Below, piece by piece: positions 9,706-36,936 of a stretch of 64,000 bases of DNA. The notes beneath the pieces are model-generated. The model did no database searches and was not told where the DNA came from. It was given only the letters and a program-made list of their open reading frames with translations. Source of the DNA: a virus (Duplodnaviria; Heunggongvirae; Uroviricota; Caudoviricetes); IMG/VR virus record IMGVR_UViG_3300045988_138358, one strand, 5' to 3'. A program made the position numbers and the translations under genes. Position 1 is the stretch's first letter, and the number at the start of each line of letters is the position of its first letter.

Positions 9706-10008
9706 ATGACCAAAAAAATTAACATAAAGGATTTCAGGGATGCGTGGCTTGATGATTTTTTTGAATTTTCAACACCACATAGAAAGATACCTCCTGATAT
9801 TCATATGACATTGTCACGGAAGTTGGACATTATCAATGCCGCAACTACCTGTAAGGATTTAAGATCACCACCAGGTAATCGGTATGAGGAACTGTCAGGG
9901 AAGCTAAATGGCTATTCATCAGTAAGGGTGAATAAGCAATATAGGTTAATTTTTAAGTGGGTTAACGGAAAGGCCGAGGACTTGTATCTCGACCCTCACA
10001 AATACTAA
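9706..10008 (+). CDS. higB: type II toxin HigB (RelE/ParE superfamily killer protein)
   Basis: 100 aa; toxin-first gene order and C-terminal NGYSSVRVNKQYRLIF pattern typical of HigB-type killer proteins. Confidence 0.75.
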   Translation: MTKKINIKDFRDAWLDDFFEFSTPHRKIPPDIHMTLSRKLDIINAATTCKDLRSPPGNRYEELSGKLNGYSSVRVNKQYRLIFKWVNGKAEDLYLDPHKY

Positions 10009-10078: not shown

Positions 10079-10417
10079 ATGAAACAGGCAACCAGAAAAC
10101 CGACGACCGTAGGTGATATCCTTCTGTACGAATACCTGGAGCCGTTAGAGCTGAAGATCAACGAGTTAGCAGAAATACTTCATGTTCATCGTAACACCGT
10201 AAGTGCTCTTGTTAATAATAATCGTAAGCTAACGATGGATATGGCATATCGCCTGGCAAAAGCATTCGATACTTCTGTAGATTTTTGGATTAATCTTCAG
10301 ACCGCAGTAGATCTGTGGGAAGTCGAAAATGATATGCGCGTTCAGGAAGAGTTAAGTCGTATCAATACTGCTGAAAAATTTATTTCTCAGCGGAACCTGA
10401 ATAAAAAAGCAGCCTGA
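10079..10417 (+). CDS. higA: antitoxin HigA (XRE-family HTH)
   Basis: 112 aa with HTH segment (LAEILHVHRNTVSALVNN) directly downstream of higB. Confidence 0.75.
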   Translation: MKQATRKPTTVGDILLYEYLEPLELKINELAEILHVHRNTVSALVNNNRKLTMDMAYRLAKAFDTSVDFWINLQTAVDLWEVENDMRVQEELSRINTAEKFISQRNLNKKAA

Positions 10418-10473: not shown

Positions 10474-10674
10474 ATGAACATTAAACCTATCCGTACAGAA
10501 CAAGATTATGAGGCCGCACTGCGTGCGGTCGAACCGATGTTCGATAACGAACCGGAAATGAATACTCCGGAAGGTGATTTCTTTGAGGTTATGAGTCTTC
10601 TCATTGAGGAGTACGAGAAGAAACATTACCCAATTCAGCCACCATCACCTGTTGAATCTTTTAACTATCCATAA
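10474..10674 (+). CDS. antitoxin-like N-terminal domain protein, lacks HTH domain
   Basis: 66 aa (MNIKPIRTEQDYEAAL...PEGDFFEVMSLLIEEYEKKHYPI) resembles the N-terminal half of HigA-like antitoxins; the ORF ends before any HTH domain. Confidence 0.45.
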   Translation: MNIKPIRTEQDYEAALRAVEPMFDNEPEMNTPEGDFFEVMSLLIEEYEKKHYPIQPPSPVESFNYP

Positions 10675-11457: not shown

Positions 11458-12651
11458 TTATGCTTTTTTCACGTACTCTATAAACATCTTCTCAGCCTGT
11501 TCTTGTGGCGTTCCAGCCATGACAAGCGCATCAATGAACGCCTGCTTCTTCAGTGCGAACTGATCGGCAAGGCGTTGCTGAAGTTCCTTATTTTTCTGTT
11601 TCTCACGTTGCAAGGCCGCTTCTTTTGCAGCCGCCCGTTTTTTCTGTGCGTCTGACAACTTTCTGGCCCTGGTCAATTGGTCACGTAGCTTGTCGATCTT
11701 GCCGTTGTCCTTTGCCAGTTTTGTACTTAAAGCTGCCTGGCGTTTCTGATAGAGCCTCCATTCGCGTTTGGCGGCTTCAACGTTCGTTTTACTGCTACGA
11801 TTGCGATTAAACTCCTTCTCGTCTTCTTTTGAGAAGTGTTTAGTTGTACGGCGGCGATCGTCACCAAATGCAATTTGCGTTGCAGCCTTTTGTAGCGCAC
11901 GAGCAATACTCATTTGCCAACTGGCGGACTGTAACCGCGTCATTGAGTGGATCACGTGTTTACAGGCGACGCCTTGCAGCTTCGGGTTGCGAACTTTTGG
12001 ATAGGCGTATTCTTTTGGCGGTGCCAGGGCAAAGTTACCCGCAGTGGCGATGTAACGATACCAGTATTGATGACGACCACAGTCACAATCGAAAGACACT
12101 CGCCCGGCGCACAGTGATTTAGTGATTTTGAGAGCTGATTTATCGTCTTCTGCGATGTCATCAACCATCTGATCCCATTCTTCAAAGCGTATCCGGACGA
12201 TATGGTGCTGGTGGACGGATATATCCGATGCTTCTACGCGGATATTAATCACATTGTGGCGAAGAGATACGGGGGTAGCTCTTTTGATACCAGATCCGTC
12301 ATCCACGGCGTTATTTGCACGCTTAATATCGATTGCCTGGCTGGATGCCACCAGCTGGGCGTATGTGATGCCAGCCGTCTTGCTGTCATATTTTTCGCGC
12401 GTTTTACTCCGTAGCTTTTCGAAACCTTTCAGGTCGTCTCGCGTGAAGAACGTGCCGCCTTTTTTCTTCCCTAACTTGAGAATATCTTCGGCGGATTTGT
12501 TCCTCAGTCTACCTGGCGTCAGCGTCCGGTGAGCTTGTCGGCGCTTACGGGTTTGTTCTTTCCTGATAATCTCGAATAAACGCGTGAAGTCCTTAGAGGA
12601 CAGGCCGTCAGTGATATAGCGCCCGTCCTGGTTTTTCAGGAAATCAGGCAT
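11458..12651 (-). CDS. SWIM-type zinc-finger protein with basic coiled-coil tail
   Basis: 397 aa; CxC...CxH arrangement (FDCDCGRHQYW...GVACKHVIH) consistent with a SWIM finger. Confidence 0.5.
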   Translation of the reverse strand: MPDFLKNQDGRYITDGLSSKDFTRLFEIIRKEQTRKRRQAHRTLTPGRLRNKSAEDILKLGKKKGGTFFTRDDLKGFEKLRSKTREKYDSKTAGITYAQLVASSQAIDIKRANNAVDDGSGIKRATPVSLRHNVINIRVEASDISVHQHHIVRIRFEEWDQMVDDIAEDDKSALKITKSLCAGRVSFDCDCGRHQYWYRYIATAGNFALAPPKEYAYPKVRNPKLQGVACKHVIHSMTRLQSASWQMSIARALQKAATQIAFGDDRRRTTKHFSKEDEKEFNRNRSSKTNVEAAKREWRLYQKRQAALSTKLAKDNGKIDKLRDQLTRARKLSDAQKKRAAAKEAALQREKQKNKELQQRLADQFALKKQAFIDALVMAGTPQEQAEKMFIEYVKKA

Positions 12652-12973
12652 TTTCTATCTCCGGTTCCGCGCTTGCGTAATCACGGATCTTGTTCCTCAG
12701 CCATGCCACATCAGGAAGAGTTAACGTGGTCCCTGCGGGCATTTCTTCCATTTCTGACTCATGGCCCACCAGCACCCGGAATACCCAGCGCAAATCTGCA
12801 TTGCCATACGCCCTGTAGGCTGCAAGGTCTGAACGATATACTTCATCAATCTTTATCGTGTACTGGAAATTATCAGAGTGATACTCCGATACCCGCTTAA
12901 TCATTTCCTGGTGAAACAGCGCACGAAAAATATCGTCTTCAATGTACCTATCGTCGAGTCTGCTATAGCCCAT
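12644..12973 (-). CDS. hypothetical protein
   Basis: 109-aa ORF overlapping the start of the downstream gene. Confidence 0.45.
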   Translation of the reverse strand: MGYSRLDDRYIEDDIFRALFHQEMIKRVSEYHSDNFQYTIKIDEVYRSDLAAYRAYGNADLRWVFRVLVGHESEMEEMPAGTTLTLPDVAWLRNKIRDYASAEPEIENA

Positions 12974-13166
12974 AACAAAGCCTCTCAGTCATAACCTGGG
13001 GGAAACTGTATGCAGGGTGTGAAATGCGAGAAACAGACAGGCCACCAGTTCAGGGGGATGTGGTTCATAAATCCCCTCACTGGTGACAAGTGACTTTCAT
13101 TAATCTTTATGCGGGGGCCAGCTTCATTTGCTGGCATTAGATTAAAAATTAAACGGAGTGAATAAC

Positions 13167-13301
13167 ATGGATGTTATCTTCGAATTATTAATGCTAATTG
13201 ATCTGTTTATGAACGCTTCATTGACCACTCAAATACTGGCGTCAATATTTTTGTTACTCTTCTACCTGGTATTGAGGGAGTTAACAAAGCTACTAATGTG
13301 A
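13167..13301 (+). CDS. small hydrophobic peptide, 44 aa (candidate membrane toxin)
   Basis: ATG at 13167 preceded by GGAG; MDVIFELLMLIDLFMNASLTTQILASIFLLLFYLVLRELTKLLM; lies antisense between two minus-strand genes. Below the ORF track cutoff. Confidence 0.3.
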   Translation: MDVIFELLMLIDLFMNASLTTQILASIFLLLFYLVLRELTKLLM

Positions 13302-13955
13302 TCAAAGTATCACGGTATCTTCATCAACTTCTTTCCCAGTCAGTGTCTTTGACTGGGAGGTGCCTGCTTTAACTTTTTCATGCCCAATAATGGACAGGAA
13401 CGAAGCGAGTATGCCTGTTTTTTGCTCTTTCTCGACTGTACCGGTCATCTGCTCTACGTAATCCGCACTGGCTACATTGTGGTATACGGTCGCGTAGCAA
13501 CACAGGATCATCAAAATATGCTCCGGCCTGATATCCTGCCAGTTCACCCGGTAGACTTCTTCTCCGTTACCGTTGTATTCGGTGTCAACGATGGAGTCAG
13601 GGATTTCGAAAGCACCTTTGTTATTTTGCGGCAGGGATAATAGCTTCTGGAGTTTTAACTCTCTGTATCTTTCCATCCCGACGATGATTGCTGCTCTGCC
13701 ATCGGCATGACGGGTCTTGAGAGTCACCTGGCTTGCTCCGGTGCCAGCGGAGATCGTTGGCGTAATTTCGTCTACCAGTACCTTAAATTTGCTTTTCCGC
13801 AGGGCTGCTATAGCTGGAGGAATTTTTTGCTTTTGCTCCAATGCTGACGCGGGAAGGGGTTTTACTTCGTTAATAATGAGAGCACCGTCTTTCAGTATTG
13901 CAGTGAGCATTTGAGGCTTGCTGGTGGTCAGGCTGAATATTGCGATCTTTTCCAT
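13302..13955 (-). CDS. hypothetical protein
   Basis: Start set at MEKIAIFSL with a GGAGGAAGG ribosome-binding site (track start 13997). Confidence 0.5.
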   Translation of the reverse strand: MEKIAIFSLTTSKPQMLTAILKDGALIINEVKPLPASALEQKQKIPPAIAALRKSKFKVLVDEITPTISAGTGASQVTLKTRHADGRAAIIVGMERYRELKLQKLLSLPQNNKGAFEIPDSIVDTEYNGNGEEVYRVNWQDIRPEHILMILCCYATVYHNVASADYVEQMTGTVEKEQKTGILASFLSIIGHEKVKAGTSQSKTLTGKEVDEDTVIL

Positions 13956-14223
13956 TGTCCTTCCTCCACGGATGACGGATACAAAAAAAGGCCGCACATG
14001 GCGGCCTGCTTTGGCGTTATGACTCCCTACCGCGCTTCGGCTGAAAGTTAATCGTCAAAAGAACCTTCAACGGGAGCCGTTAGCGCGATGGATTATGTGC
14101 AGTTTGTGATTTCCAAAATAGTGTCAACCACTTTTGGTGGATTTTATTTTTTAACCGAAATTTGGCCTAAATCATGTTTATGTAGTTAATTGTTTTTATA
14201 ACATAAAACTTCATTTTGTTTGC

Positions 14224-14847
14224 ATGAAGGATGGTGTAGTGAAGTTAAGGGCTTTAGGGGCCGCGCTCGCGGCTATGTTGGGATGCGTATCTGCTAATAC
14301 TGCCAATGCAACTGCGTTACCTGCACAATTCAGGGCAGGGCAGCAGGTTATGAATAACGCTGGTGGAGATCATTCACAAGCGGCCATTATGGACTTTTGC
14401 AAGAGGGAGGGCATTCCATTACGGCCTGTTGGAACTCAGTTTATTGGTAAAACTGACTTTTGCGTTTTTGCATATACAGCATATCTGACGGACAAAGCTA
14501 TAACAAAAACAGGTTATTCAACCAAAGATACTCTTTCCAGATTAAGTCAGGGATGGCAGCAATTCGAAGTGTATCGCCAGCAAGGATTAGGTGAGTTATT
14601 GCAACCTCTTTTTATGCTTGCGTTGGTGCCAGAGGGGCAGCAATTTTTGGTTAAAAAGGGAATGCTTCGCCAAAGTGATATTGCCGGGTTCGATAGCATG
14701 ATGGCTTATGAGCGCAAACTAACCGAGCAGCGAAATAAAAAACCATCTGCTTCATGTGTGCAAAGTAAAACAGCAGAATACAGTGCAGTAGCCGGGCCTT
14801 TAGCCAAACAAATGGCAGAGCAATGGTGTAAAAAATACGGGCAATAA
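14224..14847 (+). CDS. secreted protein or lipoprotein, unknown function
   Basis: N-terminal signal-like segment ending AAMLGC. Confidence 0.5.
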   Translation: MKDGVVKLRALGAALAAMLGCVSANTANATALPAQFRAGQQVMNNAGGDHSQAAIMDFCKREGIPLRPVGTQFIGKTDFCVFAYTAYLTDKAITKTGYSTKDTLSRLSQGWQQFEVYRQQGLGELLQPLFMLALVPEGQQFLVKKGMLRQSDIAGFDSMMAYERKLTEQRNKKPSASCVQSKTAEYSAVAGPLAKQMAEQWCKKYGQ

Positions 14848-14867: not shown

Positions 14868-15260
14868 TTGAAAAGATTGGCTATTGCTTTACTGGCGTCT
14901 TTCCCTTTGATCGCGAGCGCCGGAAATTTACAAGTTAAGTGCGGTCGGTTTGATATAAAAATCTATCCAGATGCCATATTTCTGAATGGGAATAAGGTTG
15001 ATAACGCACACCGAAAAACTGAATCTGACGTAATGAGCTATGTGTTCCAGGAGTATGCGGAGATGGGGGGAACTTACACGCTGTACTCGCTGGATGTTCC
15101 TTCTCGCGGTGATATGACATTATCCCATCAATGGCAGAACGCCGATGGCGAAGCTCTGCGCGAGGTTAAAACAGAAAAATGTGGCACTTTCCATTCTTTT
15201 AAAGGGAAAGCGCCAAATGTTAAATCTGTGCTTGAAAAACAGCGCGCAGGTGAGCTTTAA
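14868..15260 (+). CDS. secreted protein, unknown function
   Basis: Classic signal peptide MKRLAIALLASFPLIASA. Confidence 0.55.
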   Translation: MKRLAIALLASFPLIASAGNLQVKCGRFDIKIYPDAIFLNGNKVDNAHRKTESDVMSYVFQEYAEMGGTYTLYSLDVPSRGDMTLSHQWQNADGEALREVKTEKCGTFHSFKGKAPNVKSVLEKQRAGEL

Positions 15261-26997: not shown

Positions 26998-27387
26998 ATG
27001 GGCTTCCCTTCTCCTGCGGCGGATTATGCAGAGAGCCGCATTTCTCTTGATCAGCAACTAATCAGACATCCTTCCGCGACCTACTTCATGCGGGCGGCAG
27101 ACAGCCATCACCGTGAGGGAATATTGCAAGGTGCTTTGCTGGTGGTTGATTCCTCACTTACTCCGGTTGATGGTTCACTGCTTATATGCGCTATGGAGGG
27201 TGAATATCGCATAAAGAGATACAGGAAGTATCCGCGCCAGCACCTGGAGGATTTAAGCACCGGGAAGAAAGAGGCGTTACCAGTAGATGACGATGGATAC
27301 ACGGGCAGTAATGCTGTTTTTGGTGTGATCACTCATGTCATCAATGATGCCCGAAGTGGGGAGTTTGATTATAGACCTGTGATTTAA
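26998..27387 (+). CDS. humD: UmuD'-like protein (pre-processed form), HumD-like
   Basis: MGFPSPAADYAE... aligns with UmuD starting just after its autocleavage site; Ser and Lys of the S24 dyad appear retained; no umuC follows. Confidence 0.75.
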   Translation: MGFPSPAADYAESRISLDQQLIRHPSATYFMRAADSHHREGILQGALLVVDSSLTPVDGSLLICAMEGEYRIKRYRKYPRQHLEDLSTGKKEALPVDDDGYTGSNAVFGVITHVINDARSGEFDYRPVI

Positions 27388-31151: not shown

Positions 31152-32180
31152 TTACGAATCCATCAGGCGGCTATTAGCCCCCACAGACACGCCGCCACGG
31201 CGAAGATACCGCATAAGTGTTTCCGGTTTCTTCCAGGTTCCTTCCTGCATGATCTCCACCATAGACACCTGCTTTTCAGCCATATCAATAGCGGCCCCGA
31301 CGCGTGCACTATGCCCGGTCCACGTCCGGTATCTTCCTTTGTTTGGCGTAGCATCTCTTTTATTCAGCAACACCCAGGCGTCGCTGAATATTTTCTCCAT
31401 TGCAGGTGCAGTAAGGGGCGTTGTCGTGATCCTGGCCTTATTGCTACGGTGTATCGGCGGGAACAGCACTGCGTCAGGATGTTCGCGAAGCCCGGAAACA
31501 TCCAGCCAGTCATTCAGCACAGCGGTAGTGCGACGGGAAAGCACCTTATCAAGCCCGGCGGCGGTCGTTATTGTCTTCGTGTGTGAAATATGTAGCGTGA
31601 CAGTGTCACCTGTTTGGTCCAGATCTCCTACACGAATACGCGAGATTTCCGACATACGCATCAGCGTATTGTATGCAACAAAGAGAAAAGCCCGGTTGCG
31701 CAGGTCCACCAGCCGTTCTGACCTGGACAACAGGACGTCGAGCAGTTTCAGATCGTCCCACCGCAGCGGTATAGCCTGGCCTGTTCGTTCGCCTTTTTCA
31801 GTTGCCGCTTCGCGCCGGATGCGCCGCATAGCCAGAGAAACACTTTTATCATCCGAAAGTGGCGGAAGGCCACAATGCGAAAGCAGCATGTTCAGCATGG
31901 CGTAGTGCTTATCAATGGTGGTCGAAGCCAGATCGGCATCATGCAGCTGAAGAAAATACTCGCGGGCCATTTCTGGTGAGATCGGAAACCAGGCAAGCTG
32001 GCGAGCGTGACACCAGCGCGCCCAGGAATGAAACACCAAACGGAGGTCGCGCAGAGTATTCGGCGCATAAGCTCCCTGGTCATTCATGAACCGCATAAAG
32101 TTTTCTGCGGCTTCCTGGTACTCTTTGCCAATGTTGCGCAGAAAACCACCGGAACTGCCAGAGATAATTAATTCACTCAT
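31152..32180 (-). CDS. dre: Cre-family tyrosine recombinase, Dre-like
   Basis: Roughly 45% identity to P1 Cre by eye across the catalytic domain (SLAMRRIRRE, AYNTLMRMSEISRIRV, WTGHSARVGAA, LMRYLR); paired with a rox-like site. Confidence 0.9.
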   Translation of the reverse strand: MSELIISGSSGGFLRNIGKEYQEAAENFMRFMNDQGAYAPNTLRDLRLVFHSWARWCHARQLAWFPISPEMAREYFLQLHDADLASTTIDKHYAMLNMLLSHCGLPPLSDDKSVSLAMRRIRREAATEKGERTGQAIPLRWDDLKLLDVLLSRSERLVDLRNRAFLFVAYNTLMRMSEISRIRVGDLDQTGDTVTLHISHTKTITTAAGLDKVLSRRTTAVLNDWLDVSGLREHPDAVLFPPIHRSNKARITTTPLTAPAMEKIFSDAWVLLNKRDATPNKGRYRTWTGHSARVGAAIDMAEKQVSMVEIMQEGTWKKPETLMRYLRRGGVSVGANSRLMDS

Positions 32181-35183: not shown

Positions 35184-36547
35184 TAGTCATCCTCCGGCGG
35201 TTCTATCGCAATATCATCATCTCCGGCGTCATACCCTGCATCTGATGCATCATAATCACCGTAAATTTCAGCCGTTGCCGAAGGGTCAATGTCCAACTCT
35301 TCATCGTTGGCCTCGAATTCCCCAGCCTTACGCTCGCCATTGTGGTCGTAATCTCCGCACCCCAGATCTTCAACAATGGTTGCCACATCCGCCCGGCGCT
35401 CTGCCAGCCATTGCGGATGGTTAGCCTGAAGCGATGCAAACTCCTTCGCTTCTTTGTCCAGCTGTTCATCATCAACATCATTGATGTCAGAAACTGGAGG
35501 TTCGAGAAGAGTGATAGCTTTCGCCGCGCGCGCCGCGAGGATAGCCGGGACACTGACACCCTGACGCTCGATGTATTCAGCAACACCGATATCGTCCAGC
35601 TCCTCGCGCTCACGCATACGTATAGCGGCGGCGATAACTCTGGCTGCGCGTGCGTCAGCGCCAATGCGATATTCAATCTCTTTGCCACGCTGTTCGGCCT
35701 GTAGGCGTGCTAATTCGAGTTTTTCTCTGGCCTCGGCCTCTCTGAATGCTTGCTGGCGAGCACCCTGACGAAGTTTTTCATCACCCTGTCGCAGCTTTTG
35801 TTCGGACTGATATATCGCTGCCAACCTACTGATAAAATCGTTCATGTAGTAGGCCGCGTCACTGATTAGACCGAGAAGTCGCTGCCCAGGGTGCATTCCT
35901 TCTGGCTGTTCATCACCCAGGGCGTCTATCTCCGCCTGTAGGCGTTCGGCCTCCTGATCAACAATGCTTTGGTACTGAAGTGCGCGTTCTTGCGCCATTT
36001 GAATTGCTAACCGCAGGTGCTCTTCTGCGCCGTTCTTCATCATGTCGCGAGCCACACTCGTAGTGGGCAACGTGGCACGCTGCACAGCACCGCCAGGGAT
36101 CATTGCTGAAGATCCCTCGATTTTTGAGGCGCATTTATCTTCGGTGGGGATCATTTTCGCCATTTTTTCGCGCAATGATCTCCTGACAGATTCTTTTATC
36201 TCATTGTTATTATTTGCATTATTTTCATGATCCGAAGTTTTCTTTCTCGGCATACTTCGGAAAGAACCTGTGCCCTGCGAATTGTCAATTTCTGTAAATT
36301 TTGTTGTTTCTGTACCCTCTTCTGGTCTTTTTTTTGCTCTTCCTGCCCGTTTTTTTTGAGGTGATTTGGTGCTTTTTTTTGTAGTCTTCACCTGCGACCG
36401 CACCTCATTTTTTTTCATATTGAGATGCTTTCTGGCGGTATTGAAGCTAAGGTCGTGTTGCTCGCAGTATTCCTTTACGGTGATCCCTTTTTCTTCACGC
36501 AACGCTATAAATTTGGCGCGGTGCTCTTCCCAATTAACCAGACTCAT
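35183..36547 (-). CDS. pacA: terminase small-subunit / pac-recognition protein (PacA-like)
   Basis: N-terminal HTH (EYCEQHDLSFNTARKHL), long basic and acidic coiled regions; stop overlaps pacB start. Confidence 0.65.
   Translation of the reverse strand: MSLVNWEEHRAKFIALREEKGITVKEYCEQHDLSFNTARKHLNMKKNEVRSQVKTTKKSTKSPQKKRAGRAKKRPEEGTETTKFTEIDNSQGTGSFRSMPRKKTSDHENNANNNNEIKESVRRSLREKMAKMIPTEDKCASKIEGSSAMIPGGAVQRATLPTTSVARDMMKNGAEEHLRLAIQMAQERALQYQSIVDQEAERLQAEIDALGDEQPEGMHPGQRLLGLISDAAYYMNDFISRLAAIYQSEQKLRQGDEKLRQGARQQAFREAEAREKLELARLQAEQRGKEIEYRIGADARAARVIAAAIRMREREELDDIGVAEYIERQGVSVPAILAARAAKAITLLEPPVSDINDVDDEQLDKEAKEFASLQANHPQWLAERRADVATIVEDLGCGDYDHNGERKAGEFEANDEELDIDPSATAEIYGDYDASDAGYDAGDDDIAIEPPEDD
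36095..36235. other. candidate pac site: GATC-hexamer cluster inside pacA
   Basis: Five GATC within about 135 bp (near 36098, 36111, 36149, 36177, 36229), each in a TGATC-like hexamer; P1 pac is a cluster of TGATCA hexamers in the 5' part of pacA. Confidence 0.4.
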
Positions 36548-36936
36548 AAAGCAACACCACGCTTTTTAACGGCGGCATTCCACAGCTTATTCGCCATGTC
36601 CACCAGCTCTCGTTGCTCTTTTCGCGCCTGTTCGACTGATTTCCTGCTACAGTTTTTAACCAGTAAGCTACCGTATTCAGGGGTGCGCCCGCGCACCTTG
36701 AACTGATATCCGTTCAGGCCATGCAACCAGTATTTCCGTGGGTAAACACGATCATCAAGCTCACAAATAGCTCGGCTTGACCGCACAAAATGCCGAATGA
36801 TGTTGGTTACACTTACTCGTGAAACATGAAGGTGAGGATATTTTTCTTTAGCTAGAGTGGTGATTTCGGTGACTGTCAGATAGCAGTCAGCCCTAATCAT
36901 GATATCCGCAATTTCTGCGCTGCTGATATGCTCCAT
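36544..36936 (-). CDS. small HTH protein upstream of pacA, possible late-promoter activator (Lpa-like)
   Basis: 130 aa; first gene after an operator pair; assignment is by position only. Confidence 0.3.
   Translation of the reverse strand: MEHISSAEIADIMIRADCYLTVTEITTLAKEKYPHLHVSRVSVTNIIRHFVRSSRAICELDDRVYPRKYWLHGLNGYQFKVRGRTPEYGSLLVKNCSRKSVEQARKEQRELVDMANKLWNAAVKKRGVAL

Follow-up and report, generated by a model that had tools for sequence, protein, structure and literature searches.

The sequence analysed here, referred to below as the window, is a stretch of 64,000 nucleotides from a virus of the Caudoviricetes, recorded in IMG/VR as IMGVR_UViG_3300045988_138358. Comparison of the window region with Escherichia phage D6, a plasmid prophage of the P1 family, gave 98.5% identity, and the same region matched approximately 100 E. 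coli plasmids and no chromosomes. The window is a D6-type phage-plasmid of the P1 family. A first-pass annotation, made from the letters of the sequence, had drawn attention to a 44-amino-acid ORF that lies on the plus strand between two minus-strand genes and has a GGAG ribosome-binding site of its own. Both observations were confirmed (Table 1). The ORF is flanked by homologs of the baseplate wedge gene 26 and of the maturation control gene mat, the product of the latter being 33% identical to P1 Mat, and the stop codons of the small ORF and of mat adjoin in the sequence TGATCA. The small ORF is orf77 of D6, which is labelled a hypothetical protein in the D6 annotation and was never called by RefSeq/PGAP annotation. 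Its translation in the window allele (44 aa) is MDVIFELLMLIDLFMNASLTTQILASIFLLLFYLVLRELTKLLM. In relatives, the Shine-Dalgarno position is occupied by purine-rich equivalents (GGAG, AGAG, TGAG, GGAT, or GGAA).

Other accessory genes were seen elsewhere in the window. A RelE/HigB-like toxin and a HigA-like antitoxin are encoded as a pair on the plus strand (9706 to 10008 and 10079 to 10417) together with a truncated HTH gene (10474 to 10674, plus strand). This insertion lies between late genes 7 and 25 and is a further accessory island that splits the tail/baseplate operon. Two plus-strand genes (14224 to 14847 and 14868 to 15260) with signal-peptide-like N termini and PHROGs of unknown function lie immediately past mat, at the place of a simB-like gene in D6. 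The sequence on this side of mat varies and may code for exclusion functions.

Table 1. Features at and around the small ORF, with late-promoter sites of the window and the D6-type-like site of P1
Feature	Position	Strand	Basis or remark
Small ORF, 44 codons (D6 orf77; phrog_38362)	13167-13301	+	ATG 13167, TGA 13299-13301
Shine-Dalgarno sequence GGAG	13155-13158	+	8 nt 5' of the ATG; read from the sequence
Gene 26 homolog (baseplate wedge)	12644-12973	-	D6 annotation and PHROG; first of the 26-25 late genes
mat homolog (maturation control)	13302-13955	-	D6 annotation and PHROG; convergent with the small ORF
P1-type "-22" element, gAC plus 9-bp palindrome AAGTGACTT (13088-13096)	13085-13096	+	P1 matrix
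-10 hexamer TAATCT	13101-13106	+	4 nt (tcat) after the box, the P1 late-promoter geometry
5' stem-loop GCCAGC-ttcattt-GCTGGC	13118-13136	+	Folding; 5' end of the inferred mRNA
3' stem-loop TCCCAGTCA-gtgtctt-TGACTGGGA	13334-13358	+	9 bp; inside the 3' coding end of mat
Imperfect long hairpin, then GCCUGUCUGUUUCU on the minus strand	13040-13090	-	Inverted repeat and folding
Predicted mat late promoter AAATCACAAACT-gca-CATAAT	14092-14112	-	26.8 bits, D6-type matrix
Weak D6-type-like site ATTTCACACCCT-gca-TACAGT	13005-13025	-	11.9 bits; ~30 nt upstream of gene 26
D6-type sites in the window (starts)	946, 9605, 14112, 36987, 51010, 57061, 59567, 63332	-	
D6-type site in the window	51034	+	D6-type matrix
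D6-type-like site in P1	OP279344 (L017) ~27010-27030; NC_005856 ~31550-31590	- (OP279344)	D6-type matrix

Evidence that the small ORF is a gene

The length of the small ORF alone is not significant against chance. An ATG-initiated ORF of at least 44 aa was present in 612 of 2,000 shuffles (31%) of the 328-bp intergenic region, and a longer ORF of 50 aa exists on the opposite strand of the same spacer. Homologous regions were collected from D6, PLSDB plasmids, 30 IMG/VR contigs, and one GTDB genome, giving 40 loci that comprise 34 distinct haplotypes and 22 distinct ORF sequences. The frame is intact and exactly 44 codons long in all 40 loci, and it is the sole frame of the six that is open across all of them. 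A tblastn search recovered the full-length frame in 101 PLSDB plasmids of Escherichia, Salmonella, and Shigella and, among phage records, in D6 only. Changes concentrate at third codon positions (21, 11, and 31 variable sites at positions 1, 2, and 3, respectively), pairwise dN/dS ranges from 0.07 to 0.37, and Fisher tests of synonymous versus nonsynonymous change gave P values of 6e-6 to 8e-3. The proteins fall into two clades, MDVI[FL]ELL... and MNIFNKLIDLLNKFISASLTQQVSTS..., which are approximately 60% identical to each other. These comparisons indicate that the small ORF is a genuine gene under purifying selection, because an intact frame is conserved across relatives and not because of its length.

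A 63-aa form of the ORF has been called in members of the diverged clade (P0031 and others). We rejected it, as the extension is the 5' hairpin region described below, is missing or out of frame in the window clade, and shows no clear purifying selection. In the diverged clade (L009, L048, and L049), an in-frame ATG or GTG at approximately the predicted transcription start gives rise to the 63-aa calls made by some pipelines. The window clade has a 17-codon upstream ORF (13109 to 13162, plus strand), the ATG of which lies just after the -10 hexamer and the stop codon of which lies 4 nt before the main ATG in the window and 1 nt before it in most relatives. The upstream ORF and the in-frame upstream start probably are coincidental; leaderless or coupled translation from an upstream start may occur.

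Two other ORFs of the spacer also were rejected as genes. D6 orf76 (13010 to 13093, plus strand; 27 aa) and a 50-aa minus-strand ORF (12985 to 13137) overlap the gene 26 promoter/hairpin region, and both are disrupted by 15- to 20-nt deletions in relatives and therefore most likely are not genes. HigBA-carrying variants replace the two of them.

Predicted properties of the peptide

The first-pass annotation had called the product almost entirely hydrophobic. This description holds for the window allele, which has a GRAVY value of 1.54, but not for the diverged clade, in which the N-terminal half is amphipathic (MNIFNKLIDLLNKFISAS; muH, 0.56; GRAVY, 0.94). AlphaFold2 modelling returned a helix at residues 2 to 16, a break at A17-S18, and a second helix at residues 19 to 43 (pLDDT, 94). 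The best hydrophobic 19-mer comprises residues 18 to 36 (Kyte-Doolittle mean, 2.07). The second helix contains the hydrophobic core and ends in an invariant LRELT, and the C terminus that follows the hydrophobic stretch, RELTKLLM, has 8 residues with two positive charges and one negative charge. In the diverged allele, the hydrophobic core is only approximately 10 to 14 residues long, so true membrane insertion is not certain. From these models, the product is predicted to be a membrane-active two-helix peptide.

Searches of Pfam, NCBIfam, and PADLOC with three alleles at an E value of ≤10 gave no family match; the Hok/Gef, Ldr, TisB, and Fst toxin families are among those in Pfam. When 1.84 billion representative proteins were searched exhaustively with a profile, all relatives came from this phage-plasmid clade, and word-seeded searches likewise returned this clade only. 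The sole PHROG match was phrog_38362, a family of unknown function. No similarity was found to P1 PmgL, PmgN, TciC, PdcA, LydA, or LydC, and there was no match to a holin family in Pfam or PHROG. The D6 endolysin and lydA/lydB genes lie elsewhere and are unlinked to the small ORF. By these searches, the peptide is an orphan that matches no type I toxin, holin, or defence family.

A P1-type late promoter is predicted upstream of the small gene

Upstream of the ORF lies a block, ACAAGTGACTTTCATTAAnCT, that is conserved in relatives even where all of the sequence to its left is swapped. Inspection of this block revealed a match to the late (Lpa-dependent) promoters of P1, ACAAGTGACTT-tcat-TAATCT, which scores 21.5 bits when a matrix derived from eight P1 promoters is applied; the eight score 20.7 to 27.2 bits on it, and genuine P1 sites overall score 20.3 to 27.2 bits. 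The motif was taken from the curated P1 record, and its consensus is AAGTNACTT-N4-TAnnnT, with the inverted repeat centred near -22. Eleven late promoters that contain a 9-bp inverted repeat are described for P1 (PMC10695390), and our scan of P1 with the same pattern recovered promoters before mat, prt, 23, R/S, lydA, lyz, pmgC, 26, and pacA. The palindrome of the window site, AAGTGACTT, is the annotated -22 region of LPmat in the curated record, where it is followed by 4 nt and the -10 hexamer. The window site has 13 nt in common with LPmat and nearly matches LP23, with a -22 element that is identical to that of LP23, and its box-to-hexamer geometry is the same in 8 to 11 P1 late promoters.

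The runner-up P1-type site in the D6 genome or the window scored 15.5 bits. None of 100 Markov-1 randomised D6 genomes reached the observed score, but the top random score, 20.9 bits, was close to it, so that genome-wide significance rests partly on position and conservation. The box is invariant in 33 of the 34 haplotypes, even though its left flank is replaced in the HigBA variants and the 5' untranslated region to its right diverges. Natural variants of the -10 hexamer (TAATCT, TAACCT, and TAAACT) all keep T1, A2, and T6. The window allele has no -35 element, the position reading CACTGG or CTCACT, and a scan for a sigma-70 promoter upstream of the ORF found none in this allele; hits from generic sigma-70 and terminator scans of the region did not exceed chance. 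A naive search of the window for any 9-bp inverted repeat plus a -10 hexamer did not reveal the late promoters. HigBA-carrying alleles have the arrangement TTGACT-N19-TAATCT, with the -35-like TTGACT placed as in the dual Pmat/LPmat promoter of P1. We predict that the promoter of the small gene is an activator-dependent late promoter of the P1 type and not a constitutive sigma-70 promoter.

In one locus (L040, IMGVR_UViG_2526164631_000025, approximately 1250 to 1498), an IS2 end lies 2 nt upstream of the small-ORF ATG. The element replaces the promoter, the 5' hairpin, and the Shine-Dalgarno sequence, and the ORF itself is intact. The native promoter thus is dispensable for plasmid carriage, an observation that is neutral on function.

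Late promoters of the D6-type genome

Ten late operons of D6 share a different upstream motif, AAATCACAnACT-N3-TAnnnT. The operons from which it was drawn are those of capsid gene 23, R, lydA, prt, pmgB, mat, 7, endolysin, ddrB, and upfC, and the D6-type matrix was built from 10 to 11 D6 late operons. With this matrix, D6 has 11 sites and the window has 9, and every one of them precedes a late gene, mat and lpa included. The motif precedes essentially every late operon, and its presence before lpa itself suggests autoregulation. As judged from these sites, the D6-type late-promoter motif is distinct from that of P1. Between positions 12900 and 13400, no plus-strand D6-type site of at least 6 bits was present, and the sole hit was the weak minus-strand site upstream of gene 26 (Table 1); a Raoultella relative has a strong D6-type site (21.2 bits) at the equivalent position.

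The small ORF is the sole gene of the genome that lies behind a P1-type box. The genome has one Lpa homolog, encoded on the minus strand at 36547 to 36936 and 31% identical to P1 Lpa, and a second, P1-type lpa gene was not found. In relatives, a D6-type box precedes mat in Raoultella, Salmonella, Enterobacter, and Pantoea, and a P1-type box precedes it in Cronobacter phage JK004 and phage Ro157c2YLVW. Box type, as read from the motifs, tracks lineage across these six other relatives. The P1-type promoter therewith appears foreign to the D6-type genome, the specificities of the Lpa proteins being inferred from motifs only.

The predicted transcription unit and antisense transcription

The small gene is predicted to form its own plus-strand unit of approximately 260 nt, comprising the promoter, a 5' hairpin, the Shine-Dalgarno sequence, 44 codons, and a 3' hairpin. 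Transcription is predicted to begin near 13113, which would put the conserved 5' stem-loop at the very end of the mRNA. The core of this hairpin (CCAGC/GCTGG) does not vary; one pair shows covariation (G-C to A-U), and in the diverged clade the stem is longer, at 7 to 9 bp. In one locus (L009), the hairpin together with GTGTTATTTA scores as terminator-like; the 5' hairpin therefore could be an attenuator. Folding of the predicted mRNA as a whole indicates structure (z = -2.4); the Shine-Dalgarno sequence pairs with codons 5 and 6, and the AUG lies in a small hairpin.

The 3' stem-loop lies 33 nt past the small-ORF stop codon and is followed by a U-rich CTTTTTC (13373 to 13379). Its predicted dG is -17.4 kcal/mol (z = -2.5). 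Pairing is kept in 96% of cells across 11 distinct sequences, with U-A replaced by C-G in a compensatory manner, and the covariation score was reached in none of 500 shuffles. The pair is G.U or U.G in 13 of 99 cells, and these would be A.C mismatches on the minus-strand RNA. The structure thus fits the plus-strand transcript, which argues that the plus strand is transcribed there. An extra terminator-like hairpin plus T5 follows the 3' stem-loop in L005.

The first-pass annotation had proposed a search for a cis-antisense RNA as a check on the locus. A dedicated antisense gene was not found: promoter and terminator scans gave no conserved minus-strand sigma-70 promoter or terminator for such an RNA, the lone minus-strand promoter candidate in the window was at chance level and is missing in L005 and L009, and Rfam (E ≤ 1) returned nothing relevant for positions 12000 to 14500. 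On the minus strand, the imperfect long hairpin at 13040 to 13090 has a predicted dG of -26.7 kcal/mol (z = -2.7), and the deletion variants L003 and L004 keep its CACCAG/CTGGTG stem. We infer that this hairpin might be a terminator for read-through from mat. If read-through ended there, the mat 3' untranslated region would be fully antisense to the small gene, and mat read-through is the sole antisense transcript that we can infer.

The junction between mat and gene 26

The equivalent of this junction in the window is 12974 to 13301. A search of genome contigs with Mat alone yielded one close relative, and distant relatives were reached via homologous proteins and then the contigs encoding them. 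In Salmonella, Enterobacter, and Pantoea relatives, in which Mat is 52 to 56% identical, mat overlaps gene 26 at the mat stop codon, and there is neither a spacer nor a small ORF. In the Raoultella relative (75% identical; L053), the junction is occupied by HicAB, encoded on the opposite strand, together with a bidirectional terminator and a strong gene 26 promoter of the D6 type. In some elements of E. coli and E. fergusonii (L008 to L010), HigBA lies between gene 26 and the small-ORF cassette. As distant relatives have no cassette and sister elements have HigBA or HicAB at the junction, the view that the small-ORF unit is clade-specific cargo, antiparallel in the late operon mat-26-25, is reasonably well supported by these comparisons. 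The HigBA, HicAB, and small-ORF variants together mark the mat-26 junction as a hot spot at which toxin-type modules have been inserted antiparallel to the late operon. Essentially all members of the clade, which is shallow, have kept the cassette, and this near-universal retention looks more like that of a core gene than that of a typical, patchily distributed defence gene.

Possible functions of the small gene

Since the only recognisable promoter is of the P1 type, the small gene may be a trap sprung by the late-gene activator of P1. The reading that we tentatively put first, while granting it less than even likelihood, is that a silent gene for a membrane-toxic peptide is switched on by a P1-type late activator. 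The gene would be silent in the lysogen and would be turned on when a P1-type Lpa appears, either as a P1-like phage superinfects or as a co-resident one is induced. The peptide, through its N-terminal amphipathic helix and C-terminal hydrophobic helix, would insert in the inner membrane and damage or depolarise it, and this damage would kill the cell or mistime lysis before the P1-type phage matures. During the late phase of the element itself, antisense RNA from mat read-through would cover the whole small gene and hold it down. On this view, the small gene would act against P1-type phages by exclusion or abortive infection. A P1-type lpa was present in 651 of 5,426 complete E. coli genomes, compared with 98 for the cassette (approximately 6.5-fold commoner).

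The small gene could instead be an ordinary late gene of the D6-type phage, with the resident Lpa also recognising the P1-like box and the peptide, for example, tuning the timing of the holin LydA or another membrane step of maturation or release. We consider this possible but on the unlikely side. The promoter is of the late type and the D6-type and P1 Lpa proteins are homologous, but the small ORF would be alone behind a P1-type box while the other late operons use the D6-type box. Retention of the gene in 40 of 40 loci and in 101 plasmids of the clade is what would be expected of a phage's own gene; its absence from distant D6-type relatives nevertheless sets it apart from the conserved late programme. 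The gene sits among late genes, yet it is head-on with the strong mat late promoter, so that both would fire simultaneously. P1 has the accessory small lysis proteins LydC, LydD, and LydE (PMC9025707), but the small gene is not beside the endolysin or holin genes, and the D6 endolysin is without a SAR domain that would call for a pinholin.

Improbable, in our estimation, is low-level synthesis of a small membrane protein in the lysogen through weak sigma-70 activity of the same region, with the protein acting as a lysogenic-conversion or superinfection-exclusion factor independently of any late activator. The TTGACT of the HigBA alleles, positioned exactly as in P1 Pmat/LPmat, is consistent with such expression, as are neighbouring accessory genes that encode secreted or Sim-like proteins. 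Against this, the window allele reads CTCACT in place of a -35 element, the scan detected no sigma-70 promoter, and the promoter is invariant in its late box, not in its -35.

A type I toxin-antitoxin system or postsegregational killing, in which a stable toxin mRNA checked by a cis-antisense RNA stabilises the plasmid prophage, is very unlikely. In its favour, the product is a small hydrophobic peptide encoded by a plasmid element, type II toxin-antitoxin modules occupy the junction in sister elements, the predicted mRNA has its Shine-Dalgarno sequence paired and its AUG within a small hairpin, and the mat transcript could cover the whole gene in antisense. Against it, there is no toxin family or Rfam match, scans for a small antisense RNA gave neither a sigma-70 promoter nor a terminator conserved on the minus strand, the promoter without a -35 element looks activator dependent rather than constitutive, and mat is a late gene, so that the read-through RNA would be absent from the lysogen, where the antitoxin is needed. 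The original suggestion of a type I toxin or small membrane-peptide locus thus survives in part. The genuine small gene, its predicted membrane-active product, and the toxin-antitoxin modules at the same junction in sister elements agree with it; the type I designation does not fare well, given the missing family match and antisense RNA gene and the P1-type promoter, which appears to depend on an activator.

Possible reciprocity with P1 and its implications

A scan of P1 with the D6-type matrix found one late-promoter-like site, GGAAATCACAAAGTacaTACCGT, at 21.2 bits, a score that was reached by 3 of 100 random genomes. The site (AAATCACAAAGT) lies approximately 35 nt upstream of lydC, which encodes a holin homolog that is lethal when cloned. 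It is conserved in P1, SJ46, and 813R1 (L051 and L052), and the sequence just downstream of it diverges. The curated P1 record has no promoter annotated on that strand at this position.

Rival phage-plasmid lineages might booby-trap each other with promoters of the other's type, a notion that we regard as a long shot. The D6-type element would carry its peptide behind a P1-type promoter and the P1-type element would carry lydC behind a D6-type-like site, so that a resident prophage would read the late activator of an invader as the trigger for membrane damage or premature lysis. If true, such a mutual trap would be a sensor-less abortive-infection device consisting of a foreign promoter and a small membrane toxin.

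If a P1-type activator does fire the peptide, the small gene would be a minimal device for interphage defence or competition without a sensor protein, carried by plasmid prophages that are common in E. coli, Salmonella, and Shigella. This would explain a conserved gene that was missed by standard annotation (RefSeq) and would flag the mat-26 junction as a toxin cargo site of this plasmid family. The clear D6-type late-promoter motif, distinct from that of P1, makes cross-activation between the lineages directly testable. On a more modest reading, the analysis adds a genuine gene for a predicted small membrane protein, with a defined transcription unit, to clinically widespread phage-plasmids.

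Comparison with known systems

The predicted promoter shares with the P1 late promoters (LPmat, LP23, and LPS, which use Lpa and host SspA) the AAGTGACTT box, the preceding AC, the 4-nt spacer, the TAnnnT hexamer, and the lack of a -35 element. It differs in its setting, a D6-type genome, and in driving a single 44-codon cargo gene, whereas the P1 late promoters drive morphogenesis or lysis operons.

With the type I toxins (Hok/Gef, Ldr, TisB, Ibs, ShoB, and Fst), the small gene has in common a tiny hydrophobic peptide, a plasmid location, a structured mRNA, and possibly complete antisense coverage. It differs from them in sequence, belonging to none of these families, and also in having no dedicated antisense RNA gene and an activator-type promoter. 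Hok-type toxins have an N-terminal transmembrane helix, unlike the small-ORF peptide, in which an amphipathic N-terminal helix precedes a hydrophobic C-terminal one.

The small lysis proteins of phages (LydA, LydC, LydD, and small holins) offer another possible parallel, in that the small gene too has a late-type promoter and its peptide a putative membrane helix followed by a short charged C terminus (RELTK). Unlike the P1 holins and the pinholin, the peptide is half the size and can have no more than one transmembrane segment; it is not similar to LydA, LydC, or any holin family, and its gene is unlinked to endolysin or holin genes. Cloned lydC or lydA is lethal in E. coli (PMC9025707).

The logic proposed for the small gene, in which a resident element would sense a stage-specific product of another phage and respond at the membrane or at late promoters, resembles that of several interphage systems. 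Lambda RexAB and lactococcal AbiZ are phage-triggered membrane effectors of abortive infection, and P2/P4 Ogr-delta is a case of late-promoter cross-activation. There is no homology to any of these systems and no protein sensor; the proposed sensor would instead be a bare promoter of the rival's type coupled to a 44-aa peptide.
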